DNA from: Desulfosudaceae bacterium
Lineage (GTDB): Bacteria; Desulfobacterota; Desulfobacteria; Desulfobacterales; Desulfosudaceae
Direction of reading: 5' to 3'
DNA length: 64,000 nt
Assembly: GCA_963674745.2 (NCBI GenBank)
Contig: CAXXDV010000001.1
Span: 736,001-800,000, forward strand
This document shows, piece after piece, positions 17,469 to 32,150 of the stretch. How positions within the stretch are numbered: the first letter of the stretch is position 1; the number at the start of each line of letters is the position of its first letter. Under the pieces are notes generated by a model. The model did not search any database. It was not told where the DNA came from and saw only the letters and a program-made list of their open reading frames with translations. A program made the position numbers and the translations under genes.

Positions 17469-17853
17469 TATTCTCCTTCGTGTTATGACAGTCCCAGCAA
17501 TAGGGCCTTACGGACGTATAATTATGACAGGCATCACAGAATTCGGACTTATTGGAATGACAATCAAGACAGGTGTTGGTCAGACTCATGTCATATTCCT
17601 CACCCTTGTTGTTGATATAAGTCCTCTTGGCATTCCGTACGACATCTTCCCGCCATTCGTCAAGAAGCTGCATATGCTCTTTTTTCATAAAATCTTTTGA
17701 CTCTACGCAGTGTTTCGCCTCTTTGGCTTTATCGCTCAGCTTCGGCTCGGGTGCTTTGTCGGAACTTCCGGCAAACAGATTCCACCAGAGCGGCGTCAAC
17801 GCGATTATGAGGACAACGACCAACCCGGTTATAATCAGCCCTTTATTCTTCAT
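17458..17853 (-). CDS. dsrJ: DsrJ triheme cytochrome c
   Basis: Three CxxCH (CLDCH, CDACH, CWDCH), HMQLLDEWR. Confidence 0.95.
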   Translation of the reverse strand: MKNKGLIITGLVVVLIIALTPLWWNLFAGSSDKAPEPKLSDKAKEAKHCVESKDFMKKEHMQLLDEWREDVVRNAKRTYINNKGEEYDMSLTNTCLDCHSNKSEFCDACHNYTSVRPYCWDCHNTKENIDG

Positions 17854-19495
17854 CTACTTCCTCCTCTGCTCCCAGGGGTTCGCCGCGCAGGTTCATTTCT
17901 CTTGGCCCTTCTTCTCCCGGAAAGACAAGGGCATTGGCAACCAGCTCATGCAAGCCGATCACGTCCACCTCCGGAACCCAGTATTCCATCAGCGCGGGGA
18001 ATACCGCCCGATCAATCGCACAGATGCAGCCCAGCATATTTACGCCATGTTTTTCATGTACATATTTGACCGCGTTGGCTCTGGGCAGGCCGCCGGACAT
18101 GCGCAGTTCCATATCTTCACCGGCGTTGAGTCCGGCACCACTGCCGCAGCAGAAAGTCTGTTCCCGAATGGTGTTCGGCGGCATCTCGTAAAAATGGTTA
18201 CAAACATTATTGATGACATATCTTGGTTCATCCAGCAGCCCCATCCCCCGGGCCGGGTTGCAGGAATCATGGAAGGTCAGCTTGACGTAATCATTCCTTG
18301 AAGGATCAAGCTTTAACTTGTCATGCTTGATCAGATCGGCGGTAAATTCCGCGATATGAACCATTTTAGTGGCATTGGCATTCTCAAAATGGGTGCCTGT
18401 AATGGGTGACACCGGTTCTTCCAGAAAGTCGGCCGGTCCGTTCATGGTCGCCATGTACTGATGAATGACCCGCCACATGTGACCGCACTCACCGCCCAGA
18501 ATCCATTTAACACCCAGCCGTTTGGCTTCGGCATACATCTTGGCATTCAACCGTTTCATGGTTTCATGGGAGGTAAAAAATCCGAAATTGCCGCCCTCAG
18601 AAGCGTAGGTGCTCCAGGTCACATCAAGACCGTAGACCTTCTTCAGATAATCAAACAGCATCATGTAGCCCATGCAGGTATAGGTTCCCGGATCGGCGAA
18701 CACATCACCCGATGGGGTAATAAAAAGGATGTCGGCCCCTTTTTTGTTCAACTGCGGCGGATCGATTTTTATGCCCGTGAACTCTTCAATATCCTCGACA
18801 AAAAAGTCCAGCATATCTTTGAAGGCATGGGGCTGAATACCGAGATGGTTGCCTGTCCGGTAGCAGTTGGCTACCGGGGTAGCGATCCAGTCAATATTAA
18901 GACCGATCAGGTTCAGCAGTTCCCGGCCCATAATGGTAATTTCAGCGGTATCAATCCCGTACGGGCAGAATACCGAACAGCGGCGGCATTCCGTGCATTG
19001 AAAAAAGTAGTACCACCACTCCTTGAGCACATCCAGGGTCAGTTCCCGCGCGCCGGAGATATGCTTGCCGAACAGTTTATGCATAACCTTGCCGGCCATG
19101 GTAAAATCGTTGCGATAAACCGACCGTAACAGCTCGGCTCTTAATACCGGCATGTTTTTGGGATCGCCGGTTCCAAGAAAAAAGTGGCATTTATCGGCGC
19201 AGGCCCCGCAGCGCACGCAAATATCCATGAAGACCTTGAAGGTCCGGAACCGTTCCAGCCGCTCTTTAAAGCCTTCATGAAGAATCTGCTGCCAGTTTTC
19301 AGGAAGCTTCCAGTCATCCTCCAACGGATTCCAGCTTCTGGGGTACGGCAGCCCTACATATTCAACGCTTTTCGGATTTGACGCGTAGCAGTACATGCCT
19401 TCCTTGATGACAACCGGCGTATCCATCCACCCCGTCCGGGGCGTTCGGTGATCCGTCCTTGCCAGCAGTTCATCCGGTTTAATATCATTTCCCAT
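17843..19495 (-). CDS. dsrK: DsrK (HdrD-like Fe-S subunit)
   Basis: CVRCGACADKC, CTECRRCSVFCP, GECGH, FHDSCN, CCG domain. Confidence 0.97.
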   Translation of the reverse strand: MGNDIKPDELLARTDHRTPRTGWMDTPVVIKEGMYCYASNPKSVEYVGLPYPRSWNPLEDDWKLPENWQQILHEGFKERLERFRTFKVFMDICVRCGACADKCHFFLGTGDPKNMPVLRAELLRSVYRNDFTMAGKVMHKLFGKHISGARELTLDVLKEWWYYFFQCTECRRCSVFCPYGIDTAEITIMGRELLNLIGLNIDWIATPVANCYRTGNHLGIQPHAFKDMLDFFVEDIEEFTGIKIDPPQLNKKGADILFITPSGDVFADPGTYTCMGYMMLFDYLKKVYGLDVTWSTYASEGGNFGFFTSHETMKRLNAKMYAEAKRLGVKWILGGECGHMWRVIHQYMATMNGPADFLEEPVSPITGTHFENANATKMVHIAEFTADLIKHDKLKLDPSRNDYVKLTFHDSCNPARGMGLLDEPRYVINNVCNHFYEMPPNTIREQTFCCGSGAGLNAGEDMELRMSGGLPRANAVKYVHEKHGVNMLGCICAIDRAVFPALMEYWVPEVDVIGLHELVANALVFPGEEGPREMNLRGEPLGAEEEVDEE

Positions 19496-19498
19496 CGA

Positions 19499-20533
19499 TT
19501 ACTCCTTTTCCAGTGGTAGACCAACATCTTTCATCTTTTCCCTGAACTCATCCTCATACTCATCATAGGTATGGGTATGCACGTCGTAGTTCCAGGGATT
19601 AATATGTCTTATCGCGCGGGTGGTATTGGCCATATTGCGCGTCGGTGACAGGAATATGCCGCCAGCGTGCATCAGTTTGCTGTAAGGGAAATAGGCCACC
19701 AGCGTGCTGACCAGGATTAGATGGACATAAAAAAGCGCGCCCACGCCTTCCGGTGTGTTGGGGCTCAATGTTACCAGGCCCATGGCAAAGGCTTTAATGG
19801 ACAGAATATCCACTTTGGCAAAATACCGCATCAGGATACCCGTAGCAGCAATACCGATAATCAGAAACAGCGGAAAATAATCCGAAGCAAGCGATACATA
19901 TTTTACCTGCCCCAGAAAGACTCTTCTGCCCAGAAGCACCAGCAGAGCAGCCAGCAGCACCAGACCGGACATATACACCCCGGGCAGGCCGATGACAAAA
20001 TACGGCGAGAAGAATTCCAAACGGAAGAATGAATCGGCATTCTCCAGAAGCTGGATAACCCAGGGAACCGGTTCAAAGAAAAACCGCATATGCCGCAAAA
20101 GCACCACGGCAAACGCGTAATGAAACGCCAGCGCCGTTACCCAGAGAACGATCTCCCACCGATAGGAGAGCCGGTAATCATCTTTGAACTTGGCCTTGGT
20201 GTTCCGAAACAGTGAACGAAACAAAAAGACCTCAAAGAACATACGGATCAAAACACCGAGGGTCGTGTTCGGATTATCAATCTTATTCTGCTTGATCCAG
20301 GGAAGGCTTTTCTGCTGACCGCAGGTGGTGGGGATGCGGAAAGGGACGGCGGAGTTTGCCCAGCTCAGCACTTTTCGGACTACCCCGACAACAAACAGCA
20401 GGATCGCCAGATATGGAATGATTACGCCGAAAAAGGCTGTCATCCCCAGGGCATCAACCCCTATCCAGGTCAGCAGGATGAGAATCACAACTGTCGCAAA
20501 AGAAAACAGATAACTTACATTCATCAACTGCAC
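19499..20533 (-). CDS. dsrM: DsrM (NarI-like cytochrome b)
   Basis: VPFRIPTTCGQQKSLPW, LFRSLFRNT, YFPYSKLMH, SPTRN. Confidence 0.96.
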   Translation of the reverse strand: MQLMNVSYLFSFATVVILILLTWIGVDALGMTAFFGVIIPYLAILLFVVGVVRKVLSWANSAVPFRIPTTCGQQKSLPWIKQNKIDNPNTTLGVLIRMFFEVFLFRSLFRNTKAKFKDDYRLSYRWEIVLWVTALAFHYAFAVVLLRHMRFFFEPVPWVIQLLENADSFFRLEFFSPYFVIGLPGVYMSGLVLLAALLVLLGRRVFLGQVKYVSLASDYFPLFLIIGIAATGILMRYFAKVDILSIKAFAMGLVTLSPNTPEGVGALFYVHLILVSTLVAYFPYSKLMHAGGIFLSPTRNMANTTRAIRHINPWNYDVHTHTYDEYEDEFREKMKDVGLPLEKE

Positions 20534-20591
20534 CTCTCTATAAAAATTTCATCAACTCATTACGGCCGCAGCCGGTAACTTTTTCAATAGG

Positions 20592-21104
20592 TCAGGCATC
20601 CGTTTCCGGGCCGACCATCAGCCCCGCTCTTTCAAACGCCTTGAACGTCCTGTTCCTGACCTCATAGGCCTGGATTTTAAAAATCTTTTCGCGGCACTCC
20701 ACGTACTTATTAAAACCGATCAAGGCCAGCTCATCAATTTTCTGATCAACCTGCCTGATTTTCTCGGCATTATCCGCCTTTTTACCGACGACATCCCTGA
20801 TAATTTGTTTTAAAAGGAAAATAAACGAAACGGCCTGGGCAGGCGTAAAATCCTGCACCGCCCGTACCCGAATGGCGGGATCCAGGCTTTCCGCCAGATC
20901 ATCATTAGATGCCTGGCCGGCCAGCCCTTCAACAACTTTGGTCAGACTTTCCGAAAGCATACCGGACACGGGATTGGCGAAACGATTTTTTTCCTTTAAA
21001 AAAAAGGATGCCGCTTCTGCCTGATAGGACTTCAGCGCGGCCTCGAGCCATTTTTTGGCAATTGCCTCTTCATGCCCGGATATCAGTGTTTCAATTTGTG
21101 TCAT
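20592..21104 (-). CDS. dsrT: DsrT (RsbRD N-terminal domain protein)
   Basis: NRFANPV, IRVRAVQDFTPAQAVSF, KYVECREKIF; directly upstream of dsrM. Confidence 0.85.
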   Translation of the reverse strand: MTQIETLISGHEEAIAKKWLEAALKSYQAEAASFFLKEKNRFANPVSGMLSESLTKVVEGLAGQASNDDLAESLDPAIRVRAVQDFTPAQAVSFIFLLKQIIRDVVGKKADNAEKIRQVDQKIDELALIGFNKYVECREKIFKIQAYEVRNRTFKAFERAGLMVGPETDA

Positions 21105-21227
21105 GACTGTTTTTACAACCTGGCCGAATCTCAGCGGCTTTCGAAATTCACCGCTCGACCCGCCCGTTTTAAGGACAATGTTGGAACCGAAAAAAGACGG
21201 CACTCATCCTTTATGAATAAAAAGTTT

Positions 21228-21256
21228 TATATAACCAAGCATCTTGGCCCTGTCAA
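21228..21256 (-). promoter_or_regulatory. Sigma70-like promoter of dsrTMKJOP
   Basis: TTGACA-17 nt-TATATA on the minus strand. Confidence 0.55.
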
Positions 21257-21389
21257 GTAAAAAGGAAGCCTTTGCATCCTTATCATTTTTCAAATTATTG
21301 CAGGCTGGTTAAGAAGCCACCGGGATCGTCCGAATTATTGGCTTGACATGAAGTGTCGGAAGGTGATATCCATTTTTTATTTTTCAGAC

Positions 21390-21466
21390 CGGGGCGTGGC
21401 GCAGTCTGGTAGCGCACTTGCATGGGGTGCAAGGAGTCGCAGGTTCAAATCCTGCCGCCCCGACCA
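21390..21466 (+). tRNA. tRNA-Pro(GGG)
   Basis: Acceptor CGGGGCG/CGCCCCG, anticodon stem CTTGC/GCAAG with loop AT-GGG-GT, GGTTCAAATCC T-arm, encoded CCA. Confidence 0.97.
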
Positions 21467-21475
21467 CACACTTCT

Positions 21476-22018
21476 TCATAACAGTTGTTTCCCACAGAGG
21501 TGCTTCAGCTTCGACAAAGCATCAGGATCATCAATAGAAACAATTGCTTCCGGCCCTAAAAGCCATTTCCGACAGACCGGTTCGACCAGCGATTTTCGGA
21601 CAATCCAGAAGTGTCCGGCCCTCGTGAGGGTCAGCAACGGAGCCAGTTGCCCGGCCCACCCCGATCCGGCCAGTTCCAGCTGGCCGATCTCATCCACTAC
21701 GATCCAGTCCGCCGAACAGCAGCGGCTTATTGACAGGGCTTCTTTTCCGGCCGCCAGCCCCTGATCGAAAAAGGTAAACCCCGTAGCCGCGTCGTTGGCA
21801 GGGGCAGGGTTGCGCCGGGCCAGTGGCGTGACGCGATCGTTGCCCAGGTCGACCAGATCAAACCCCGATCGCTGATTGCTCTGCCAGTGTCCGCGGGCGA
21901 TGATGCCGGCCACTTTACCCCCCTGTTGTTTCATCCAGTCGATTAGCGCTTCGGCCAGGGTGGTTTTTCCGGACTGGGTATCGCCGGTGATAATGATCAC
22001 CCGCGGTCGCTCATTCAT
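21476..22018 (-). CDS. P-loop NTPase (NTPase_1/THEP1/DUF2478-like)
   Basis: IIITGDTQSGKTT, RSGFDLVDL, IVVDEIGQLE; start overlaps the ABC ATPase stop. Confidence 0.8.
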   Translation of the reverse strand: MNERPRVIIITGDTQSGKTTLAEALIDWMKQQGGKVAGIIARGHWQSNQRSGFDLVDLGNDRVTPLARRNPAPANDAATGFTFFDQGLAAGKEALSISRCCSADWIVVDEIGQLELAGSGWAGQLAPLLTLTRAGHFWIVRKSLVEPVCRKWLLGPEAIVSIDDPDALSKLKHLCGKQLL

Positions 22019-22799
22019 CAAAAATCGCTTTCGGCAGAAACACCTGCCTGTTGCCGGAAATGTTGACGGCCATGGTTTCGGCTTCATACAACCGGTCCAT
22101 GTTGATTTTTGTCATGACTTCGGCTGTCGGGCCGGACACGATGACCCGGCCGTCCTGAAGCATGATGACCTGATCGGCGAAAAGCATGGCCAGGTTGGGG
22201 TCGTGCATGGCAGCCACCACGCTGATGCCCCGGGTCCGGCAAATGGTCTTAATGGTTGTCAGCAACCGGTACTGATTGTGAAAATCCAGGTGGTTGGTGG
22301 GCTCATCCAGCAGCAGCACATCGTTGGTCTGGACCAGCGCCCCGGCCAGCAGGGCCATCTGCCGCTCCCCACCGGAAATCCGGTTAAAATTGCAGCCGGC
22401 CAAATGCCCGGCATTGAGCATGTCCAGCGCCGATTCCGCCATGGCATAGTCTTCCGCTTTGGGACTGGCGGTCATACCCAGGTAGGGCGCCCGGCCCATG
22501 ACCACCACTTCCAGGACGGTAAACGGAAAGATATCGACATGTTCCTGGGGTACCAGGCTGACGTTCCTGGCCACCGCCTGACGTGGCAGGGTACTCAAAT
22601 CAATGCCGTTGACCGTCACACTCCCTGCGCAGGGCATCAAAATGGTATTCAGACAATGCAGAAGCGTTGTTTTGCCCGAGCCGTTGCGGCCCAGCAGGGC
22701 ACAGAATACGCCCGCTTCAATATCAAACGAGATATCAGTCAAAATGGGACGGCCGTTGTACTTAAACCCGATTGACCGGCAGGACAGTTTTACATCCAT
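22011..22799 (-). CDS. ABC transporter ATPase (FepC/BtuD/HmuV type)
   Basis: GRNGSGKTT, ISGGERQ, LLLDEPTNHLD, AMHDPNLA. Confidence 0.93.
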   Translation of the reverse strand: MDVKLSCRSIGFKYNGRPILTDISFDIEAGVFCALLGRNGSGKTTLLHCLNTILMPCAGSVTVNGIDLSTLPRQAVARNVSLVPQEHVDIFPFTVLEVVVMGRAPYLGMTASPKAEDYAMAESALDMLNAGHLAGCNFNRISGGERQMALLAGALVQTNDVLLLDEPTNHLDFHNQYRLLTTIKTICRTRGISVVAAMHDPNLAMLFADQVIMLQDGRVIVSGPTAEVMTKINMDRLYEAETMAVNISGNRQVFLPKAIFDE

Positions 22800-23842
22800 C
22801 CGCTCCCCCTGTTCCTGAAAAGCAGATAGGCGAAAATCGGGGCCCCGGCCAGGGCGGTGATAATGCCCACGGGGATTTCACTGGTCGTCAGGCTGCGGGC
22901 CGCGTCATCGGCCGCCAGCAGCAGAATACTGCCCAGCAGGGCCGTGACGGGCAACATGTGCTTGTGATCGGGCCCGACCAGGGTGCGGGCGATATGGGGC
23001 ACCACCAGGCCGATCCAGGCGATCTGCCCGCAGACCGACACGGTGATGGCCACGATCAGGGAGCTGGCGGAAATCAACACAAACCGGAACAGGCGGGGTT
23101 CAACCCCGTGTGCCCTGGCCTGGAGATCGCCCAACGAAAGAATGTTCAAACGAAACCGCATCAGCAGAAATAACACCAGGATCCCAAGACAAAAGGGTGC
23201 GGTAATGATGACATCGGTCCAGGTCACCCGGGTCAGGCTGCCCATGATCCAGAAAACGATTGTGGGCAGTTCTTCAAGCGGGTCGGAAAAATATTTAACC
23301 ACCATCAGCAGTGCATTAAAGAACGAGAGCACCACCATACCGGCCAGCACCAGCACGATGACCGGTTTAACGGCTACCAGGCGGGCGATGCCCAGGGCGG
23401 TATAAACCGCCAGCAGCCCAAAGGCAAAAGACAGCAGATGGACCAGCGCAAAGGAATGGCCGGGCATTACCAGTCCAAGGGCGGCGCCGAAGGTACAACC
23501 GGCCGCCACACCCAGGATATCCGGCGATACCAGGGGGTTTCTGAAAAGCCCCTGGTAAACGGCACCGGACAGGGACAGGCTCATGCCGACCATGATCGCC
23601 ATCAGGCACCGGGGAACCCGCAACCACCAGATCACCATGGCATCGGCCGTCAGGGGTTCCGTCGAAAAATTACCGGACAGGAGGCGGGATAAAAACGTCG
23701 CCAGTTCACTACCGGCCACGTTGAATCGGCCCATTGAAAGGGAGGCGACAAAGAGGAGCACCAGCACCAGAAACAGGATGATGATCAGTTTTCCGGGACC
23801 GCCCAAGGGGCTGTTACCGGAAGATCGGGATTCAAAAGTCAT
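22790..23842 (-). CDS. FecCD/BtuC-family ABC permease
   Basis: LRVPR, QGLFRNPLVSPDILG, IAWIGLVVPHIAR, EIPVGIITALAGAP. Confidence 0.93.
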   Translation of the reverse strand: MTFESRSSGNSPLGGPGKLIIILFLVLVLLFVASLSMGRFNVAGSELATFLSRLLSGNFSTEPLTADAMVIWWLRVPRCLMAIMVGMSLSLSGAVYQGLFRNPLVSPDILGVAAGCTFGAALGLVMPGHSFALVHLLSFAFGLLAVYTALGIARLVAVKPVIVLVLAGMVVLSFFNALLMVVKYFSDPLEELPTIVFWIMGSLTRVTWTDVIITAPFCLGILVLFLLMRFRLNILSLGDLQARAHGVEPRLFRFVLISASSLIVAITVSVCGQIAWIGLVVPHIARTLVGPDHKHMLPVTALLGSILLLAADDAARSLTTSEIPVGIITALAGAPIFAYLLFRNRGSGWM

Positions 23843-24897
23843 TGTCTGCCCAATATGTTATCTGCCAGTTCACCGCCCATGTCGCTCAGGGACTGACCGA
23901 ACAGGTCCCGGTGAAATTGATTGATCATTTTCATGGTCTGGCCCTGATCAAAATGATCGGGATAGGCCTTTGCCGCCAGCCAGAGGGTGGCCAGAACAGA
24001 CAGCGGGGAGGGGAAATCCCAGGGCGACAGGGTGGACGGGAAACGATAAACAGCCTTATCGGCCACTGCCGGGACACCTTGAAAAACAGGGCTGCCCAGA
24101 CGCCGGGTCACGCTGCTGTCCAGACTCTGGGAGAGCACCATCACATCCGGGTTCCAGCGGATGAATTGTTCCGGCGACACTTCCTGAAAATAGCCGGAAA
24201 GGTCATGGGAAACGTTGACCAGACCGGCCGTGGCCAGGATTTCGTCCTGGAGCATATTACCGCTGGTGGTGCTGAACAAACCGCGCGGCGAAGCGTAGTA
24301 AACGCGTTTCTTTTTTTCAATCACCGGCCCGGCCAGTTTTTCTTTCACCAGGGCAAGAACGTCATCCATCCTGGATGCTGCCGGAATCAGGCTTTCATCA
24401 TCTCCCACCGCACGGGTAATGAGTTCCAGGGCCTGCTTGATACTGTCAAATGTTTCCGGGACAATAATGATCGCCGGGATGCCCAGATGCTGCAGGCGGT
24501 CGGCCAGCGCACGCCCGTCTTTCTGGGCGTAAAGAATCACCAGGTCCGGCTTGACCGATAAGATGGTCTCCAGGTTCAAGCCGGCTGATTTCTTGCCGAC
24601 GGCGGGGACACCGGCCACACCGGGATATACTGCCTGATGAAGCCGGTCTTTTCGGGAATCGGTATCAATACCGACCAGTTTTTTCTGCAACCCAAGGCAG
24701 AAGACACACAGGGTTGCAGGCTTATATGTGGTCACCAGGCGATTGACCGGCCCGTTTATGGTAACAGGACGTCCGGCCATATCGGTTATCACGCGACCGC
24801 GGGTTTTGTCCTGAGCCATGGCCGGGAGCGACAGAAACGTAATCAGCAATAGCAACCCGCTGATCCTGACGGCTTTAGTAAATCGTGTGCTTATCAT
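23839..24897 (-). CDS. Periplasmic binding protein (Fe-siderophore/B12 type)
   Basis: Signal peptide, ITDMAGRPV, NLETILSVKPDLVI, VSPEQFIRWNPD, PWDFPSP. Confidence 0.88.
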   Translation of the reverse strand: MISTRFTKAVRISGLLLLITFLSLPAMAQDKTRGRVITDMAGRPVTINGPVNRLVTTYKPATLCVFCLGLQKKLVGIDTDSRKDRLHQAVYPGVAGVPAVGKKSAGLNLETILSVKPDLVILYAQKDGRALADRLQHLGIPAIIIVPETFDSIKQALELITRAVGDDESLIPAASRMDDVLALVKEKLAGPVIEKKKRVYYASPRGLFSTTSGNMLQDEILATAGLVNVSHDLSGYFQEVSPEQFIRWNPDVMVLSQSLDSSVTRRLGSPVFQGVPAVADKAVYRFPSTLSPWDFPSPLSVLATLWLAAKAYPDHFDQGQTMKMINQFHRDLFGQSLSDMGGELADNILGRQ

Positions 24898-25006
24898 TTC
24901 GCCATCCTCATGTCATGATTTGGGTCCGAATATACCATCAATCGGCGCTAACGCCAAGAGAGAGGGAAAATCCGCCGCGCCTAAATTGAAAATAAAACCG
25001 GTATTG

Positions 25007-25885
25007 TTATTTTCTGGTCGTCACAACCGAGACGATCAGGTAAGCCAGAAATGTGAGAATCATGAACGCGTAAACACCGAAAAAAAGCTCATGAAGCGGA
25101 TTTTCAACAACGGTGATGACGGCGCCGACAGCGGGAACACCCGTGTCCGGCAGCGACTTTTCAGGGATTAGAAAAAAACGGTTAAGGGTAACACGAAAAG
25201 CGCCCCGTCGATAGGGCTTTAATAAACAGGCGCGCCCGCCTTGAATTGTTGCGCCTTCCCTGGAAACGGAAAAATCGATATAATTATCCTTCAGCCTGAC
25301 GCGGTCCCGGGTCAACAATTGGCGGCGTTGTTGACGGTCTTTATGCTGCAGAACAGAAGCAAAGGAACAGCTTGCCGATTTCAGTTCAATGGTGGTGCCA
25401 TCCGGTAAACCGTTGCTCTGCCCGGGCAGCAGTTCCATGTTGGATGACTTAAACCCGATGGCCATGTGCGCCCCATGCCCGATCATCACCAGCCCGATAA
25501 GCACATGCAGGGTAAAGAGCAGCAGCGGTCTTGCCCCGCTGTTCAAGCGGATTTTCAGGGCCGGTTGCATGAAGCAGCAACAGGCGAGGTTGATAAACAG
25601 CAATCCGGACAACCCCATCAGCACGATCAGCCAGCCGCTGATCAGCGGGTGCGAGGCGGCGCTGTTTCCCAGCCAGGACAGGATCAGTTCATCGTTCATG
25701 CCCTTGATAATGCTGTCCGCAACCGGATGCCGGGTCAGCAGGATCCCCATGCCCAGCCACAGGGCCAGGGCGGCCATGAGCACAAAGCAAAATGACAGTG
25801 ACGACAGGTGCTCAACCAGCCCCCGGAAAACGGATGCCCGGCTTTCGGTAAGGGTTATTTCGCCAGCGCCGTTTTTGATTACCAT
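25007..25885 (-). CDS. ResB/CcsB-like membrane protein
   Basis: Three N-terminal TMs, INLACC, TM His (FTLHVLIG), periplasmic domain and C-terminal TM; translationally adjacent to the CcsA-like gene. Confidence 0.55.
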   Translation of the reverse strand: MVIKNGAGEITLTESRASVFRGLVEHLSSLSFCFVLMAALALWLGMGILLTRHPVADSIIKGMNDELILSWLGNSAASHPLISGWLIVLMGLSGLLFINLACCCFMQPALKIRLNSGARPLLLFTLHVLIGLVMIGHGAHMAIGFKSSNMELLPGQSNGLPDGTTIELKSASCSFASVLQHKDRQQRRQLLTRDRVRLKDNYIDFSVSREGATIQGGRACLLKPYRRGAFRVTLNRFFLIPEKSLPDTGVPAVGAVITVVENPLHELFFGVYAFMILTFLAYLIVSVVTTRK

Positions 25886-26604
25886 ATGAACAACCCCGTG
25901 ACGGCCGCCGCCGTTCCCAGGTGAAGGCCAAACCGCCATGGCGTCCGACGGGCCAGGGATACCGGGAGGTGAAAGTTGAGCATGAAAAGAAAAAAGACCA
26001 TGGCGGACTCAAAGAAGTTGTCGCTCCAGTGCCAGGAGTCCCCCCAACCCAGCAGGCACCAGACGGATCCGGACAGCTCACTGCATAAAAAAGTAATGGC
26101 ACCGGCCATGAACAACTGCCGGTCGAAATCCTGCCGACCGCTGCTGAGTGCGGCCGTCAACCCCAGGGTCGCGGTCAGCATGACACCGGCTGAAAGCTGT
26201 TTAAAGAAAAAAAACCCCTGGGCCAGGGGGCTGACATACATAAAATAATCATGATTCAGTTGCAGCCTGGCCAGGCCCCCCAGGGCGCAGAGCAGGGTCA
26301 GCGCCAGCCCGAACAGAACAAGAACCGCCCGGTCATCCCGGTAGCGGGGCCTTGCCACCAGCAGACCGGCCAGTGTCCAGCCCAGCACCGAGATCGATTC
26401 ATATCCGCCGACAAGGGGAAGCCGATGAAGGGAAAAAGCAAACACCCCGATATGAATGGACAGCAGAATAAAACCGGTCGCAGCGGGGAAAACGGCCGGG
26501 CGCATCCTGTTTCCCGGTCCGGCCAAAACGGCGGTGAGCAAAAAGCACACCGCCGCGGCAAGGAACATCATTGTGGCACCCGGGATAATAGTAATTCCTG
26601 TCAT
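25879..26604 (-). CDS. CcsA/CcmC-like (WWD-family) membrane protein
   Basis: HRLPLVGGYES, Trp-rich WCLLGWGDSWHWSD, LNFHLP. Confidence 0.7.
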   Translation of the reverse strand: MTGITIIPGATMMFLAAAVCFLLTAVLAGPGNRMRPAVFPAATGFILLSIHIGVFAFSLHRLPLVGGYESISVLGWTLAGLLVARPRYRDDRAVLVLFGLALTLLCALGGLARLQLNHDYFMYVSPLAQGFFFFKQLSAGVMLTATLGLTAALSSGRQDFDRQLFMAGAITFLCSELSGSVWCLLGWGDSWHWSDNFFESAMVFFLFMLNFHLPVSLARRTPWRFGLHLGTAAAVTGLFIW

Positions 26605-26616
26605 ATTATCCTGCTA

Positions 26617-28698
26617 TTAGAACCTGGCGCTGGCCCCCACCCGATACATCCGTCCCCGGCCGGGGAAGCCGATTTCCTGTTCATAGTCTTCATCAAAGAC
26701 ATTATCCACTTCCACAAAACAGGTGACAAGGTCTTTAAATGTTCTGGAAATCCGGGTATTCGTAATCAGATAATCATCGGTGGTGGTGGCTTCAAGGTCC
26801 GGATCACCGGTGGTCGGCAGGGTGTCGTACATACTGTTAACGTAAATGGCCTGCAAATCAACATTTACCAGGCAGACGGGAATAACGAACCCGCAGCCGA
26901 CGCCCAGCTTGTGTTCCGGCACGTTGGCCACCCGGCCGGTGGCCCGGTTGTCACTCCGGTTATCAGCGTCATTGAAGGTATAATTGAGGTTGAAGCGGAG
27001 GGTCTCGGACGGCACCACGGCCAGGTTCATTTCCACACCTGCCATGGCGATATCTTCGGTATTGGTGAAAAGTTCTTCCCCGGTGTAATCGTCTTCATAA
27101 TAATCCCGGGAAATCCAGTCGGAAATATCATGGTAAAAAGCAGCCACATCAACCGTTGTGCAGGTCCCGAAGGCTTTTCTGACCCCCAGCGTATAGTTGA
27201 TGGTGGACTCTGAGTCAAGTTCCGGATTGCCACCACTGGAAGAGTAAAGCTGAAACAGGGTCGGGAACCGGGTCTTCCGGGCGATGGATCCATAGAGGGT
27301 GGCGTCCTTGATCAGGCAGTCAAAGCCGATCATGGGGTTGAACTCATCTTTTGTGCCGGGCGTATCGAGCGCGGCCTGGCCAAGCAGAAAGTCATCATCG
27401 TCAAAGACATAATCTTCGGCTTCATCCACCTTGAACCAGTCGTAGCTGACGCCGGCATAAACGGTCAGGATGTCGGTGGGACGGAACTCATGCTCGGTGC
27501 CGACAGAGCCGGTGTAGGAGGCGTAGTCATTGTAGGGCATCCAGGAATCATCCCGGGATTCATGATCGTCTTTTTTGTAGTGCAGGCTGATATGCCCCTT
27601 ATGGTAGTCTGCAGACGAGTAGTCGGTAAACAAAGAAGCGCCCAGGATATTGTCTTTGTAGGTGCTTTTGGCAATGGCGGTTTCCATATCCGGACCGTCA
27701 TAGGAAACATACTCATCCTCGTGATCGTGATAAAATAATTTTCCCCGCAGGGCCAAACCGTCACTGAAGGTATGGCGGCCGCTCAAATCTATGCCCATGT
27801 CATTATAATTTTCAAACCGCGCAAACGTCGAAAAGGCGGGGTTGTCATTTTCCCGGGTGAAAATCCGGTATTCGTTGGTGGCCAGAGGGTGACCTTTTTC
27901 CGTTTGCAGGGTATGAAAACTGATAAAATATTCGGATTGCTCGGTGGGGGTCAGGCCGAACCGGGCCCAGAACTTGTCTTCTTCATAATCCGAGTTCTCC
28001 CGGCGGCCGCCGTCTTCATGGATGCCGTCCAGGTCGGGCATAAATTTTCTGGCGCGAACCGCTGTTTCCGGATCAAAATGATCTGAAAGCGTCCAGCCGT
28101 CGCTTTCCTGACGATTATAACTCAGCCAGTAGTTGAATTTGCCGACCTGATTGCCGTGGGACAGGGAAAGATTATATGTCCTGTCTTCACCCCACTCGCC
28201 CTTGACATGAAAGGTGGGGTCTTCGGTTCCCTGCTGGGTGATAATATTCACTACTGCGATCTGGGCATTGGCGCCGTAAAGGACCGAAGGCGCGTTCTTG
28301 GTAACTTCGATCCTGGAAATAATATCAACCGGGATCTGATCCAGATTCAGTTTACCGTAATAGGTCTCATAAAAAGGAATACCGTCGATCAGAAACAGTG
28401 TCTTTTCCTGGGAAAAGCCATGCACGGAAACCTCGGCTTCGTTTTTTCGCCCCCGGGTCATGGTGATGCCCGGCGCGAACTTCAGGGCTTCGGCCACGGT
28501 CTTGCTGTTATTGGTTTTTATATCTTCTGCGGTAATCACATGGGTGATGGCGATGTCTGAAACGGCGGTCTTCTCACCGGTCACGACAATTTCGCCCAGC
28601 GTATAACCCTTTGTTTCAGAAGTCGATTCAGCAGCCAGGGCAGCGGCTGCCAGAGTCAGACAAACGACCAGGACCATTCCCTGAAGGACATGTTTCAT
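26617..28698 (-). CDS. TonB-dependent receptor
   Basis: Signal peptide, EIVVTG TonB box, plug (LIDGIP..RIEVTK..SVLYG), RFPTLFQLY, VDNVFDEDY, terminal Phe. Confidence 0.95.
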   Translation of the reverse strand: MKHVLQGMVLVVCLTLAAAALAAESTSETKGYTLGEIVVTGEKTAVSDIAITHVITAEDIKTNNSKTVAEALKFAPGITMTRGRKNEAEVSVHGFSQEKTLFLIDGIPFYETYYGKLNLDQIPVDIISRIEVTKNAPSVLYGANAQIAVVNIITQQGTEDPTFHVKGEWGEDRTYNLSLSHGNQVGKFNYWLSYNRQESDGWTLSDHFDPETAVRARKFMPDLDGIHEDGGRRENSDYEEDKFWARFGLTPTEQSEYFISFHTLQTEKGHPLATNEYRIFTRENDNPAFSTFARFENYNDMGIDLSGRHTFSDGLALRGKLFYHDHEDEYVSYDGPDMETAIAKSTYKDNILGASLFTDYSSADYHKGHISLHYKKDDHESRDDSWMPYNDYASYTGSVGTEHEFRPTDILTVYAGVSYDWFKVDEAEDYVFDDDDFLLGQAALDTPGTKDEFNPMIGFDCLIKDATLYGSIARKTRFPTLFQLYSSSGGNPELDSESTINYTLGVRKAFGTCTTVDVAAFYHDISDWISRDYYEDDYTGEELFTNTEDIAMAGVEMNLAVVPSETLRFNLNYTFNDADNRSDNRATGRVANVPEHKLGVGCGFVIPVCLVNVDLQAIYVNSMYDTLPTTGDPDLEATTTDDYLITNTRISRTFKDLVTCFVEVDNVFDEDYEQEIGFPGRGRMYRVGASARF

Positions 28699-28977
28699 TT
28701 ACTCCCCCTTATATTAAATTGATATTGTTATTCAAATTTTGAAAATTAGGATTTATCGTTATTAAATGTCAATACAATTTTTATATTTTTAATCAAATGG
28801 GTTTAAAATAACAGAAAATAACCTATATTAACCATATTTTAATATAAAGGGGCCAGGGATTCGAGGGGTCAAGGGGTCACATGACGGATGCAGGACTTGT
28901 CTTTCAGCCCGGTTTGCGCTAATAAAACTTAATATCCATGCTGAAAATCGGATACCCCCATCCTGAAAGGGTCACTC

Positions 28978-29922
28978 ATGAAAAAACTGTTATCAACACG
29001 GGAAGTTGCAGAGTACCTGGGCGTCAATGAAAAAATGGTCTATTCTCTGGTTTCGGCAAAAGGCCTGCCCGCCTCAAAGGTCACCGGCAAATGGGTTTTC
29101 CCTTTGCACCTGGTGGATGAATGGATGGAAGCCAACACGCTGAACTATCCCAGCCGTGCCCTTGACAAGGCCTCGGGGCATCCCCGGGTGATTGTCCTGG
29201 CCGGCAGCAACGACATTCTGCTTGAAAAAACCATCGGCCTTTTCAACCGCTCCTTTCAGGACCACCTGGCGGTTTTTGCCAACCTGGGCAGCATGGGCGG
29301 ATTGCGGGCGCTTCGCAGGGACCTGTGCCATATCGCTTCATCACATCTGCTCCAGGAAAACGAAGCGGACTATAATTTTGAATTTGCCAACCGGGAATTC
29401 AACCAGGTGCCGGTCATGGTCAACTTCTGCCGCCGTGAGCAGGGATTTCTGCTGCGATCAGGCAACCCGAAAAAGGTTCAGTCCATTGCAGACATAAAAA
29501 AACCGGGGATTCGGCTGATCAACCGTTCGGTCGAAACGGGTACCCGCCACCTGTTCGACCGGGAAGCGAAAAAGGCGGGGATCGACCCGGAAACCATCGA
29601 GGGCTATCAAAACGAAGCCAACAGCCATATGGAGGTCGGCCTGGAGATAAAATCCGGACGGGCCGATATCGGCCTGGGTATCCGAACGGTAGCCGGCCTT
29701 CTGGGATTGGATTTTATCCCGCTGCGCTGGGAACGGTATGATCTGATGATCGCCAAAGACCGGTTTTTTGATAAACCCGTCCAGTATTTTCTGGGCATCA
29801 TGCAGGAAGCGGAATTCAGGGAAATAGCAAGCTCGCTGGAAGGATACGACGTCTCTACGGCCGGCAAAATCATCTATCCGCAGGAACCCGTGGCATTGGA
29901 TTCGAATTCCCGAAAAAAATGA
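28978..29922 (+). CDS. Excisionase-type HTH + PBP (molybdate-binding-like) transcriptional regulator
   Basis: LLSTREVAEYL..LPASKVTGKW, AGSND, GSMGGL, REQG, INRSVETGTR, ADIGLG, ERYDL. Confidence 0.85.
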   Translation: MKKLLSTREVAEYLGVNEKMVYSLVSAKGLPASKVTGKWVFPLHLVDEWMEANTLNYPSRALDKASGHPRVIVLAGSNDILLEKTIGLFNRSFQDHLAVFANLGSMGGLRALRRDLCHIASSHLLQENEADYNFEFANREFNQVPVMVNFCRREQGFLLRSGNPKKVQSIADIKKPGIRLINRSVETGTRHLFDREAKKAGIDPETIEGYQNEANSHMEVGLEIKSGRADIGLGIRTVAGLLGLDFIPLRWERYDLMIAKDRFFDKPVQYFLGIMQEAEFREIASSLEGYDVSTAGKIIYPQEPVALDSNSRKK

Positions 29923-29988
29923 CAACAAAAAATAATTGGCCCGAATCAAACGGGCTGTCGTGGGCACCACAACCGGCCGGACACATTA

Positions 29989-30243
29989 TCAGTCTGAAAA
30001 AAACGCCCACTTCATAAAAAAATAAAAAACGGCAAAGAGTATGGCGCTGACCACATAGGCAATCCAGTCAACCGGTTTTTTCGCTTTTCCGTCTTTCATG
30101 ATTTTACCCACGCGCCGTCCGCACTGGGTGCATTTTTTTACGTCCAGCGGCAACCGCTCAAGACAATCCGGACACTGCTTATAAGGCCTTGGCAGTTCGG
30201 GCTCTTTTCTTTCTTCTCCCATGACGACTCTCTTTTTACCCAT
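29989..30243 (-). CDS. Small Zn-ribbon membrane protein
   Basis: CPDC..CTQC plus C-terminal TM; follows ppiD-like gene. Confidence 0.65.
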   Translation of the reverse strand: MGKKRVVMGEERKEPELPRPYKQCPDCLERLPLDVKKCTQCGRRVGKIMKDGKAKKPVDWIAYVVSAILFAVFYFFMKWAFFSD

Positions 30244-30251
30244 ATTGCCTG

Positions 30252-32150
30252 TTAATTTAAAACACGCTCGTTTTGCGTTATTTCACTTTCCGCTTTCATA
30301 CCTGACAGCCAGGCGGTTAAGGCGTCCTGCTTTTTCAACTGCATTAACTGGTTCATAACATCTTCTTTTACCTCGGAGAAAGCGTCCCCTTCCGGCGGCC
30401 GGCGGTCTTCCAGATAAAGCACATAGTACCCTTTTGACCCATTGATCACTTTATCAGCCAGCCGGTTTTCGGTATTCAGCAAAAAAGCTTCCCGGGAAAG
30501 CCCGGATTCAGTACCGAGATCCGGGACAGGTGCCTGGCGCTTGAAATAATCGGTTGCGATCAGTTCGGCCGATGTTCCTTCGACAGCAGCGTCAATGACC
30601 GAACCTTCCTTAAGTTTTTCCAGGAGATCTTCAGCCGCCTTTTGGGCCGCCTCCTCACGCAGCTCTTCGCTCAAATCCGCCAGCACGGTTTCCCGCACTG
30701 TTTCGAGCCCGGGTACCTCCGGCGCTTTTCGCTGATCTACCTGAAACAGGTAATAATTGTCAGCAATCTGAACCACATCACTGATGTCTCCCTCCACCAG
30801 ATCAAAGGCCTGGCGGACCAGCTCCCCGCCCTGCGGGATTTCTTTTACCGCTTCTGTCCGTGCTAACAACGGCGTCGTTTCCGCCTTCAACTCGAATTTT
30901 TCGGCCGCCTGCTTGACGCTGTCATTGTCTATGGCTGCGTCAAACACACTCATGGCTTGTTCGTAGGCCATGTCCCGGGCCTTTTTCAGCGCCATTGTGT
31001 TTCTGATATCAGCAGCGACGTCGGTCAAAGGTGTCACCGAGGCATCATTGACCTTATCCACCTTGATCACATGCCAACCGAATACCGTTTTGACCGGACG
31101 GCTGATCTCACCGGGCTCCATGGAAAACGCTTTTTCAGCGAATGGCGCCACCAGTTCCCCTTTTTTAAATTTTCCCAGGGCGCCGCCTTTAGACGCACTG
31201 CCCGCGTCCTGGGAATATGCTTTGGCGCACTCGGCAAAATCCCGACCATCGGTGGTGACCATATCATATATCTTCATGGCTTCCGCTTCTTTATCCGAAA
31301 CCGTGGATTCCGGTGCATCTTCCGGCACCTTGATCAGAATATGACTGGCTTCCACCGTTTCTTCAGTACGATAATCATCCTGATGATCTTCATAGTACTG
31401 TGCGACCAGATCCTCATCCACGGATACCCCGGCGGTGTAATCTTCGGGATTAAAGCGGATATAGGTTATCTGCGTTTTTTCCGCGGTTTTATATTTTTCC
31501 TTCTGCTCATCAAAATAGGTTTGGAGTGCCTCGTCCGAAGGATCGACATCCTTGAAATCACCCGGCGAAAAAACCGCTACCTTTATCTTGACCTCGGCAT
31601 TCTCCCATTCATACCAGCGGCGGGCCTCATCTTCAGACACCTTGACGCTGTCATCGATCAACTGTCTCACCTTCTGCGTCAACAAATCCCTTCTCTGCAG
31701 CTGCTCAAAAGATTCCGGGGTCAGGTGGTTTCGCTGCAATATGGAATTATATATCTTGGGCTTGAACTCGCCGTTTATCTGAAAAAATTTCATGTTTCTG
31801 ATCGTGGCCGACAACTCCTCATCAGACACCTGGAACCCGAGTTCGGCCGCTTTCTGCAGCAGCAGCGTTTCCGTAATCAGTTGATCCATGGCCCGTTCTT
31901 TTAATCTCAGCATGTTCAGAATTTCATCATTCAGCTGGTTGCCGAATTGCTGTCTGGCGGAGTCTAAAAGGACAAAGTATCTGTCCTGAAACTGGGTATA
32001 ACTGATGTCTTCCCCATTAACCGTCGCTGCCGTGACATTATTCTGATCCCGAAAATTTCCGACCCCCATAAAGATAAAGGCCAGAACGATAATGGACAGG
32101 ACGCCCTTGATTATCCATGACCCTGCTCTTTGACGCATAAATTGAAGCAT
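30252..32150 (-). CDS. ppiD: PpiD-like periplasmic chaperone / parvulin PPIase
   Basis: N-terminal anchor, SurA-N domain, ASHILIK, YSQD..SASKGG, PVKTVFGWHVIK. Confidence 0.88.
   Translation of the reverse strand: MLQFMRQRAGSWIIKGVLSIIVLAFIFMGVGNFRDQNNVTAATVNGEDISYTQFQDRYFVLLDSARQQFGNQLNDEILNMLRLKERAMDQLITETLLLQKAAELGFQVSDEELSATIRNMKFFQINGEFKPKIYNSILQRNHLTPESFEQLQRRDLLTQKVRQLIDDSVKVSEDEARRWYEWENAEVKIKVAVFSPGDFKDVDPSDEALQTYFDEQKEKYKTAEKTQITYIRFNPEDYTAGVSVDEDLVAQYYEDHQDDYRTEETVEASHILIKVPEDAPESTVSDKEAEAMKIYDMVTTDGRDFAECAKAYSQDAGSASKGGALGKFKKGELVAPFAEKAFSMEPGEISRPVKTVFGWHVIKVDKVNDASVTPLTDVAADIRNTMALKKARDMAYEQAMSVFDAAIDNDSVKQAAEKFELKAETTPLLARTEAVKEIPQGGELVRQAFDLVEGDISDVVQIADNYYLFQVDQRKAPEVPGLETVRETVLADLSEELREEAAQKAAEDLLEKLKEGSVIDAAVEGTSAELIATDYFKRQAPVPDLGTESGLSREAFLLNTENRLADKVINGSKGYYVLYLEDRRPPEGDAFSEVKEDVMNQLMQLKKQDALTAWLSGMKAESEITQNERVLN

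Follow-up and report, generated by a model that had tools for sequence, protein, structure and literature searches.

A CcsA/ResB-like membrane protein pair in a TonB-dependent receptor operon of a Desulfosudaceae bacterium: a candidate tungsten/molybdenum uptake system beside a predicted TupR-type regulator

Why would relatives of a cytochrome c synthase be encoded between an outer-membrane receptor and an inner-membrane importer? The question is raised by a locus found in a stretch of 64,000 nucleotides, referred to here as the window, from a Desulfosudaceae bacterium (NCBI GenBank assembly GCA_963674745.2, contig CAXXDV010000001.1, positions 736,001 to 800,000 of the forward strand). Seven genes located in the same direction (21476-28698, minus strand) face away from a divergent regulator gene (28978-29922, plus strand). 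An initial annotation described seven co-oriented genes and a divergent regulator combining an excisionase-type helix-turn-helix (HTH) with a periplasmic binding protein (PBP) domain, and all eight genes were found where it had placed them; their Pfam and NCBIfam matches are given in Table 1. The genome (G000 in our set) is 99.96% complete. We consider it somewhat probable that the locus is a TupR-controlled, TonB-dependent uptake system for tungsten (W) or molybdenum (Mo) in which a complex derived from CcsBA acts on the metal species. In the mechanism that we infer, the divergent regulator would be a tungstate/molybdate sensor of the TupR type controlling the operon, a W/Mo species would enter the periplasm through the TonB-dependent receptor and cross the inner membrane by way of a type II ATP-binding cassette (ABC) importer resembling MolBC-A, and the P-loop NTPase may pass it on. 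The CcsA-like and ResB-like proteins would constitute a complex in the inner membrane, with the cytochrome c synthase of system II (CcsA plus ResB) as its ancestor, and would act on the metal species at the periplasmic face of that membrane. With the help of heme, for example, a redox reaction or an exchange of ligands might convert the metal forms of sulfidic habitats into the oxyanion accepted by the binding proteins.

The kinship of the pair with CcsA and ResB was not apparent in routine comparisons. Neither protein matched a Pfam family at E ≤ 0.01 (the thresholds of PF01578, Cytochrom_C_asm, and PF05140 were not reached), the sole family-level match of the pair was one to CcsB by the CcsA-like protein (E 0.0018), and single-sequence searches of both proteins against the PDB sequences returned nothing at E ≤ 10. 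Foldseek listed CcsBA at an E value of 0.01 only, and profiles and VIA-align were needed to reveal the relationship. The AlphaFold2 model of the CcsA-like protein (predicted local distance difference test, pLDDT, 93.7) was aligned by VIA-align with CcmF (Z 18.9, root-mean-square deviation 3.5 Å over 233 residues) and with residues 626-887 of CcsBA (Z 18.1, 2.9 Å, 230 residues); the next entries reached 10.6 at most. Its profile matched PDB entry 7s9y at E 0.0039, and hhalign against the CcsA of the same genome gave a probability of 95.6% (E 1.2e-8, 227 columns). The model of the ResB-like protein (pLDDT 86.6) shows four transmembrane (TM) helices and a small beta-rich periplasmic domain. It aligned with residues 3-337 of CcsBA, the CcsB part (Z 10.7, 3.6 Å, 215 residues), and hhalign against the ResB of the genome gave a probability of 70.8% (E 3.8e-5). 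The periplasmic domain accounts for about 120 of its 292 amino acids, as opposed to the canonical ResB of this genome, which has 496 amino acids (the ResB/CcsB family, PF05140, is characterized by a large periplasmic domain between TM3 and TM4). Because homologues are conserved in conserved synteny and the AlphaFold2 models are confident, the two genes are real, and their products are remote homologues of CcsA and ResB. The "degenerate CcsA/ResB pair" of the initial annotation was in this way upheld by profiles, hhalign, the predicted complex described below and the fold comparison with CcsBA that it had proposed.

The two proteins were also predicted to form a complex with each other. The ipSAE score was 0.85 (0.00 for the best control), the runs shared at least 98% of the contacts and the partner pLDDT was at least 82; of 157 solved complexes, 116 attained this ipSAE mark, as did 2 of 215 mismatched pairs. 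This prediction may in part echo the resemblance to the existing CcsBA structure. Relatives of the pair are scarce. A word-indexed search of 5.8 billion clusters returned eight relatives of the 241-amino-acid protein and six matches for the 292-amino-acid protein, one of which was the protein itself, and the neighbors in the ESM Atlas were short Cytochrom_C_asm and ResB clusters, chiefly from Thermodesulfobacteriota and Myxococcota. When a nine-sequence profile was run against 1.84 billion representatives, 130 CcsA-like proteins were collected at E ≤ 0.001 (104 of them at E ≤ 1e-10), nearly all of about 245 amino acids. Twenty-five family representatives were scanned with Cytochrom_C_asm; only the four most distant exceeded 29.9 bits and several others gave sub-threshold matches, which places the CcsA-like family, as judged from these scores, at the edge of the Cytochrom_C_asm superfamily.

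The family of CcsA, CcmC and CcmF is defined by two periplasmic histidines flanking the WWD domain (PMC6299221). In Table 1 of PMC11322641, heme at the transmembrane site of Helicobacter hepaticus CcsBA is liganded by H858 and H83, and P-His1 and P-His2, on the periplasmic side, are H761 and H897; according to this paper, synthase function requires all four histidines. To compare these positions, 28 family members were aligned with the two canonical CcsAs of the window's genome. H212, the sole invariant histidine of the CcsA-like family, aligned with CcsBA H858 in a weak profile match (E 0.0039), and H127, invariant in the ResB-like family, aligned with CcsBA H83 (E 0.06) and with a histidine of the ResB of the genome. 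The P-His1 column, in contrast, contains phenylalanine (F131) in 28/28 family members and histidine in both canonical CcsAs. The tail beyond H212 comprises 30-43 amino acids in the family, as opposed to 41-45 with a histidine at +37 in the canonical CcsAs, and the window protein ends 29 residues past H212, short of the position of that histidine. In the WWD motif (GWGDSWHWS.NFFES), W182, W187, W191, W193 and G188 are retained and the aspartate is replaced by S, N, T or G; the glutamate of the "PKE" that follows is phenylalanine in 25 of the 28 proteins and S, A or H in the rest. Other residues are family-specific and widely conserved, namely R135 (K in the three proteins of the window group), E176 and P214 (R in three members), together with H137 and C103 in the ResB-like partner, both near-invariant; in four further proteins, E takes the place of R135 and Q that of E176. 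The family is small and sharply bounded by the invariant phenylalanine at P-His1, R135, E176, H212 and P214, and for this reason it can be easily annotated and tested genetically.

Judging from these alignments, the transmembrane heme site is probably retained in the pair, and the periplasmic heme-ligating apparatus of the synthase is lost. Since the P-His1 histidine and the WWD aspartate are missing and the protein ends before P-His2, the pair is not expected to work as a canonical synthase. In comparison with CcsBA/ResBC of H. hepaticus (PDB 7S9Y/7S9Z), the pair has the same two-protein architecture and fold, the tryptophans of the WWD loop and both transmembrane histidine positions; it differs in the phenylalanine at P-His1, the early end, the replaced aspartate and glutamate, the much smaller periplasmic domain of the ResB-like protein and the location of its genes in predicted metal-uptake operons that lack a CXXCH protein as partner. 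The supposition that the pair is not the cytochrome c synthase of the organism was supported, as canonical ResB and CcsA genes are located on another contig (contig 3, C3:657331-659501) and a further CcsA gene is found on contig 1. The retained transmembrane histidines suggest a bound heme b, through which the pair might have a redox or ligand-exchange role.

The same residues bear on an alternative in which the pair is a specialized cytochrome c synthase, or a heme exporter, for a dedicated periplasmic CXXCH protein. In this genome such a protein would have been lost or would be encoded elsewhere, and the link with metal uptake would be indirect, through the heme c protein. In favor of this alternative, both transmembrane histidine positions are retained, and the near-invariant H137, near the periplasmic end of TM3 of the ResB-like protein, could replace a periplasmic ligand. 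However, a synthase with an invariant phenylalanine at P-His1 and no P-His2 would be at odds with the need for all four histidines reported in PMC11322641, and the genome already possesses a canonical system II. None of the eight proteins of the locus contains CXXCH, CXXXCH or CXXXXCH, in agreement with the earlier remark that the operon lacks a CXXCH substrate. We regard this alternative as unlikely; the neighborhoods of the pair in other genomes, described below, contribute evidence on both sides.

What nutrient the operon serves is suggested by its regulator. Regulators of the TaoR/TupR family respond to tungstate and molybdate (Rajeev et al. 2019, Environ Microbiol 21:784, as cited in PMC10102598, PMC11980592 and PMC12327845). 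The architecture of TaoR is described in PMC11980592 as HTH(17) plus PBP-like, and PMC10102598 attributes the identification of TupR (DVU3193) as regulator of tupABC to Rajeev et al. 2019. The window regulator is the only gene of its genome with the HTH_17 plus PBP_like combination; PBP_like is otherwise found there in a fusion with MoeA and in an HTH_3 regulator whose gene faces a porin-modABC operon. In this latter locus (contig 3, 1212698-1219398; L026), the gene preceding modABC codes for an outer-membrane porin of the Alginate_exp family, and the regulator is of the HTH_3 (Xre-type) plus PBP_like kind. Relatives of the window regulator are common in the order, where 140/151 genomes had a match at E ≤ 1e-40; about 100 of the matches listed were full-length and 50-67% identical. 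Twenty orthologue loci (58-67% identical) were taken from the best 37 matches, skipping those with likely short contig flanks. A gene for a binding protein of the TupA or WtpA type was directly adjacent in 12 of the 20, and two of these 12 also had a divergent gene of the aldehyde:ferredoxin oxidoreductase (AOR) family. ModB/ModC-like genes were located within about 1.1 kb in three further loci, raising to 15/20 those with ABC genes of the Tup/Wtp type; nothing related was found in four. Tested with NCBIfam, five of the neighbors had TupA as their sole family match (242-358 bits, under the 400-bit cut-off), and WtpA scored 452 bits in L088, above its cut-off of 355. In the one remaining locus (L100, G029:C50:7100-22100) the orthologue follows a TonB-dependent receptor gene whose product is 28% identical to the window receptor. 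The L100 receptor is accompanied by a duplicated ATPase of the energy-coupling factor (ECF) type and two small proteins, a further arrangement beside this regulator that lacks tup genes, and the same genome contains the pair and a receptor on another contig (L013).

Architecture and neighborhoods both agree with the claim of the initial annotation that the regulator is of a Mo/W type, and they identify it as a positional orthologue of the TupR-type tungstate regulators. In the genome of the window this orthologue faces the receptor, pair, ABC and NTPase operon in place of tupABC. It resembles TaoR and TupR in its HTH_17 and PBP_like domains and in having orthologues beside tungstate ABC transporter and AOR-family genes, and it differs in that the neighboring target is neither tupABC nor aor. 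The intergenic region (28699-28977) contains the hexamer GTTATT at 28727 and 28758 and AATAAC at 28807 and 28817. These four occurrences in 296 nucleotides compare with a density of 0.5 per kb across the window. A TTGACA -35 element is located between the repeats on the minus strand (28773-28768), and this block with its flanking repeats is conserved in a locus of the same genus (L009) and partly in another one (L010). The repeats are a candidate operator for the regulator. The label "TunR" was rejected for this protein; TunR has a different architecture, and the literature search returned no paper connecting TunR, tungstate and Desulfovibrio.

The pair itself is also linked with Mo/W transport genes in other genomes. 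A 74-row profile was run against 401 sampled genomes of the phylum, and 110 matched at E ≤ 1e-8. The scores were bimodal, with 23 places in 21 genomes at 7.4e-37 or better and the next best at 4.4e-23; the weaker group is probably composed of ordinary CcsA. Twenty of the 23 places, picked by pair homology alone, were analyzed (the window's own place was omitted, as were two that lay at the end of contigs about 2.4 kb long). A ResB-like gene adjoined the CcsA-like gene in 18/20. In the largest group, a homologue of the window receptor adjoined the pair (12/20 loci); four of these loci had type II ABC genes as well and three also had the NTPase. Seven loci from nearer relatives all had the receptor next to the pair, and in L009 and L014 the regulator was adjacent too. 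These two sets of loci answer affirmatively the question of conserved synteny raised by the initial annotation. A search for related loci with a nine-row alignment gave seven, all in metagenome-assembled genomes of Desulfobacterales, Desulfobacteraceae, Desulfonema or Desulfoplanes.

A second group comprised five of the 20 loci, which had no receptor and in which the pair was located within oxyanion-transporter operons. In L077, nifE/N-nifB-like genes were followed by the pair, modA (291 bits, cut-off 253), modB and modC. The order was ModE-like gene, pair and modABC in L076 and L071, and modABC, DUF364, pair and TP_methylase in L072. In L085, the pair was followed by a TupA-like gene, TP_methylase and a MoCoBD molybdopterin aldehyde oxidase. 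Furthermore, the receptor, ABC, NTPase and pair genes of L067 are immediately preceded by an AOR gene. Since Mo/W importers of two unrelated classes have this pair associated with them, the pair would act on the substrate rather than on one transporter. Mo/W, heme and corrinoids had been offered as possible substrates; only Mo/W gained support, through the presence of the pair inside operons with modABC or TupA-like genes, and heme and corrinoids gained nothing. A need for tungsten is suggested by the genome of the window, which contains six AFOR_N (AOR-family) genes and one modA; there was no match to TupA, none to WtpA save a weak one on ModA, and its remaining PBP-like binding proteins are PstS. 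Tungsten or molybdenum is the substrate that we infer for the window operon.

The receptor and the importer are less specific in what they indicate. In addition to plug and barrel, a signal peptide and a TonB-box-like sequence (GEIVVTG) are seen at the N-terminus of the receptor, which identifies it as a TonB-dependent receptor, and all NCBIfam models for B12, heme and siderophore receptors scored far under their cut-offs. The receptor also matched, under threshold (E 1e-19 to 1e-24), the NCBIfam families of CU, PUIUD, PCPU and FCYXU motif-type TonB-dependent receptors, which by their names we take to be selenocysteine-motif receptors. The components of the cobalamin system BtuBFCD were not identified among the proteins of the operon, with 136.9 bits for BtuB (cut-off 599.7), 54.7 for BtuF (234) and 210 for BtuC (461). 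The best PDB relatives of the binding protein were 4hn9 (E 3.8e-34) and 4ovk (9.3e-28), both structural-genomics proteins without an assigned ligand, followed by the molybdate/tungstate-binding MolA HI_1472 (3psa, E 7.9e-22), which matched over residues 151-334 only; H. pylori Ni-binding CeuE (2.8e-12) and BtuF (1.7e-8) ranked lower. The likeness to MolA is consistent with W/Mo uptake and is not proof of it, because the two proteins with no assigned ligand scored higher. MolBC-A of Haemophilus influenzae (HI1470-72), a type II importer for molybdate/tungstate, is of the same class as the window importer, with Peripla_BP_2, a FecCD-type permease and an ABC ATPase; it differs in the partial match of MolA and the better ones of the two other PDB proteins. 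We know of no TonB receptor, CcsBA-like pair or NTPase acting as a partner of MolBC-A. ModABC, TupABC and WtpABC probably share their nutrient with the window importer; the latter belongs to type II, a class unrelated to theirs, and has an energized outer-membrane receptor ahead of it.

These resemblances leave room for an alternative in which the operon imports another chelate (heme, a corrinoid, or a complex of ferric iron or nickel) and the adjoining tungstate-type regulator is coincidental or senses another anion. The sub-threshold NCBIfam matches go in that direction, since the receptor resembles those for siderophores, B12 and hemin, the permease resembles BtuC and the ATPase resembles heme and corrinoid ATPases, and so do the iron-complex, nickel and B12 binders among the PDB relatives of the binding protein. 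The best models for the ATPase were those of F420-0, heme and corrinoid ATPases, every one of them scoring under its cut-off. However, Rfam, applied to positions 20000-31000 at E ≤ 1, matched only a tRNA-Pro (21390-21466) and no cobalamin or Moco riboswitch, so that the absence of a cobalamin riboswitch noted in the initial annotation stands. There was no Fur box above shuffled sequence either; Fur control was rejected because the best match had six mismatches to the E. coli Fur-box consensus and 101 of 500 shuffles were equal or better. Adjacency of the regulator was seen again in L014, from another family of the order, the corresponding cluster of L067 begins with an AOR gene, and the pair recurs with modABC and TupA-like genes, where heme, B12 and iron make no sense. 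Import of another chelate is in our opinion quite unlikely.

Other loci connect the pair with c-type hemes, and here evidence for the specialized synthase was found. Three of the 20 (L082, L083 and L084, family f79), those with the weakest scores, have the pair with a NapC/NirT-like protein with three CXXCH motifs, a truncated-looking S8 subtilase and an ABC exporter; L084 additionally codes for a cytochrome with eight CXXCH. The pair members of these loci are the most distant of the family and likewise have phenylalanine at P-His1; in these genomes the variant pair might serve a third purpose, connected with cytochromes. A protein of about 350 amino acids follows the receptor in nine other loci (L013, L015, L068, L069, L070, L075, L078, L080 and L081). 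CXXCH was present in 7 of 10 homologues inspected, and in seven related loci a periplasmic protein adjoining the receptor has this motif. The protein has a signal peptide of the Sec type, not twin-arginine, and matches Oxidored_molyb weakly and in part only (E 1e-6 to 1e-11); its C-terminus is extended in four loci by a fused domain with the tetrapyrrole-methylase fold (TP_methylase). It is odd for a periplasmic protein to combine a fold like that of a molybdopterin domain with the fold of an S-adenosylmethionine methylase and a heme c motif. On the other hand, the genome of the window has no homologue of this CXXCH protein, and in 15 of the 28 loci there was no CXXCH open reading frame (ORF) within 7 kb.

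The Sec-type proteins with Oxidored_molyb-like domains would also fit a different alternative, namely that a pterin cofactor (Moco/Wco, or a precursor of it) is transported across the inner membrane, or handled there, by the pair, much as heme is moved by CcsBA; the cluster would in that case be devoted to salvage or export of the cofactor rather than the free metal. Large cofactors suit type II ABC importers and TonB receptors, the WWD platform devoid of axial histidine, with its invariant phenylalanine at P-His1, would suit a planar non-metal ring, and the NTPase has weak MobB-like matches. Nonetheless, the Oxidored_molyb matches are of the weak, partial kind just mentioned, and five loci couple the pair to binding proteins of the ModA or TupA type, whose families bind the oxyanion. 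We also know of no precedent for bacterial Moco uptake, although no search was aimed at it, and this counts against the pterin alternative, which we consider very unlikely.

Returning to TupR-controlled W/Mo uptake, several observations weigh against it. Chelates such as siderophores, heme and B12 are the usual cargo of TonB-dependent receptors that work with type II ABC importers, and the best NCBIfam models for the window proteins, albeit sub-threshold, are of the chelate type. The five loci with Mod/Tup genes belong to a single taxonomic family (f52) and so stand for few independent events. The alignments behind heme binding are weak (E 0.0039 and 0.06; hhalign 95.6% and 70.8%). The CXXCH protein next to the receptor and the three f79 loci speak for a possible cytochrome-linked role of the pair family. 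In the genome of the window, ModA could also be the supplier of tungstate. Among the 21 genomes that have the pair, 10 possess a TupA-like gene, as compared with 248/401 overall, and pair and TupA do not complement each other.

AORs, formate dehydrogenases and nitrogenases of anaerobes require tungsten or molybdenum. To our knowledge, W/Mo uptake is known to occur through ModABC, TupABC, WtpABC and MolBC only, with no dedicated energized outer-membrane step or accessory membrane enzyme. If the proposed function is correct, sulfate reducers own an extra regulated module for W/Mo where sulfide alters the chemistry of the metal, and the CcsA/CcmC/CcmF fold, so far tied to cytochrome c biogenesis only, has a second function. 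The locus may reveal a new function for a heme-handling fold. A more general proposal, which we make tentatively and hold to be less than probable, is that the CcsA/ResB-derived complex is a new heme-b-bearing accessory of W/Mo acquisition in anaerobes that processes sulfidic-habitat or pterin-bound forms for importers of the ModABC, Tup and MolBC types, and that the operon is the first TonB-dependent W/Mo route. In the papers searched, nothing linked CcsA/ResB-like proteins with Mo or W or described TonB-dependent Mo/W uptake; the regulon tables of Rajeev et al. 2019 might list such a target. The Bacteroides thetaiotaomicron locus BT2473-2482, an iron-starvation locus with "CcsA" proteins (PMC10434189), is a loose precedent that involves another metal and other partners.

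Table 1. Features of the window locus and of related receptor-following proteins (positions refer to the window unless a locus is named)
Feature	Position	Strand	Family matches
P-loop NTPase	21476..22087	-	NTPase_1 E 1.8e-16; MobB 7e-5 and DUF2478 1.4e-4, both weak
ABC ATPase	22011..22799	-	ABC_tran E 1.3e-27
FecCD/BtuC-type ABC permease	22790..23842	-	FecCD E 1.7e-79
Type II (BtuF/FhuD/MolA class) periplasmic binding protein with signal peptide	23839..24897	-	Peripla_BP_2 E 1.8e-19
ResB/CcsB-like membrane protein, 292 aa from ATG 25885 (ORF open to 25939)	25007..25885	-
CcsA-like membrane protein, 241 aa, heme-handling-protein fold	25879..26604	-
TonB-dependent outer-membrane receptor, 693 aa	26617..28698	-	Plug E 3.7e-22; TonB_dep_Rec_b-barrel E 2.3e-27
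Divergent intergenic region with operon promoter and candidate operator	28699..28977	.
Transcription regulator, HTH_17 (excisionase-type) plus PBP_like	28978..29922	+	PBP_like E 2.4e-66; HTH_17 E 5.6e-13
Receptor-following protein, ~350 aa	L068:13340-15205
Receptor-following protein, ~350 aa	L013:3962-5734
Receptor-following protein, ~350 aa	L069:4892-6697
Receptor-following protein, ~350 aa	L070:4913-6691
Receptor-following protein, ~350 aa	L075:13210-14259
Receptor-following protein, ~350 aa	L078:5556-6626
Receptor-following protein, ~350 aa	L080:13163-14215

The genes of the operon are closely spaced. A gap of 12 nucleotides separates the receptor and CcsA-like genes, and the latter overlaps the ResB-like gene by 7 nucleotides if this starts at ATG 25885. 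A gap of 109 nucleotides precedes the binding-protein gene and is followed downstream by overlaps of 4 and 10 nucleotides. A consensus scan for promoters and terminators located a promoter-like site within this gap (24957-24929, minus strand) and otherwise gave nothing decisive. The likely start of the NTPase gene is an internal ATG at 22018, which leaves an overlap of 8 nucleotides with the ATPase gene; the NTPase gene also comes after the ATPase gene in L009, L010, L011, L066, L067 and L079.

Downstream of the operon and on the same strand are dsrK (17843-19495) and dsrM (19499-20533), genes of the DsrMKJOP complex, which identify the host as a sulfate reducer. They are preceded by a gene for a 203-amino-acid protein with an RsbRD_N domain (20592-21203), and the tRNA-Pro (GGG) gene at 21390-21466 lies between this group and the operon. 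Beyond the regulator, the minus strand encodes an 84-amino-acid zinc-ribbon protein (29989-30243) and a periplasmic chaperone that resembles PpiD/SurA and has a rotamase domain (30252-32150).

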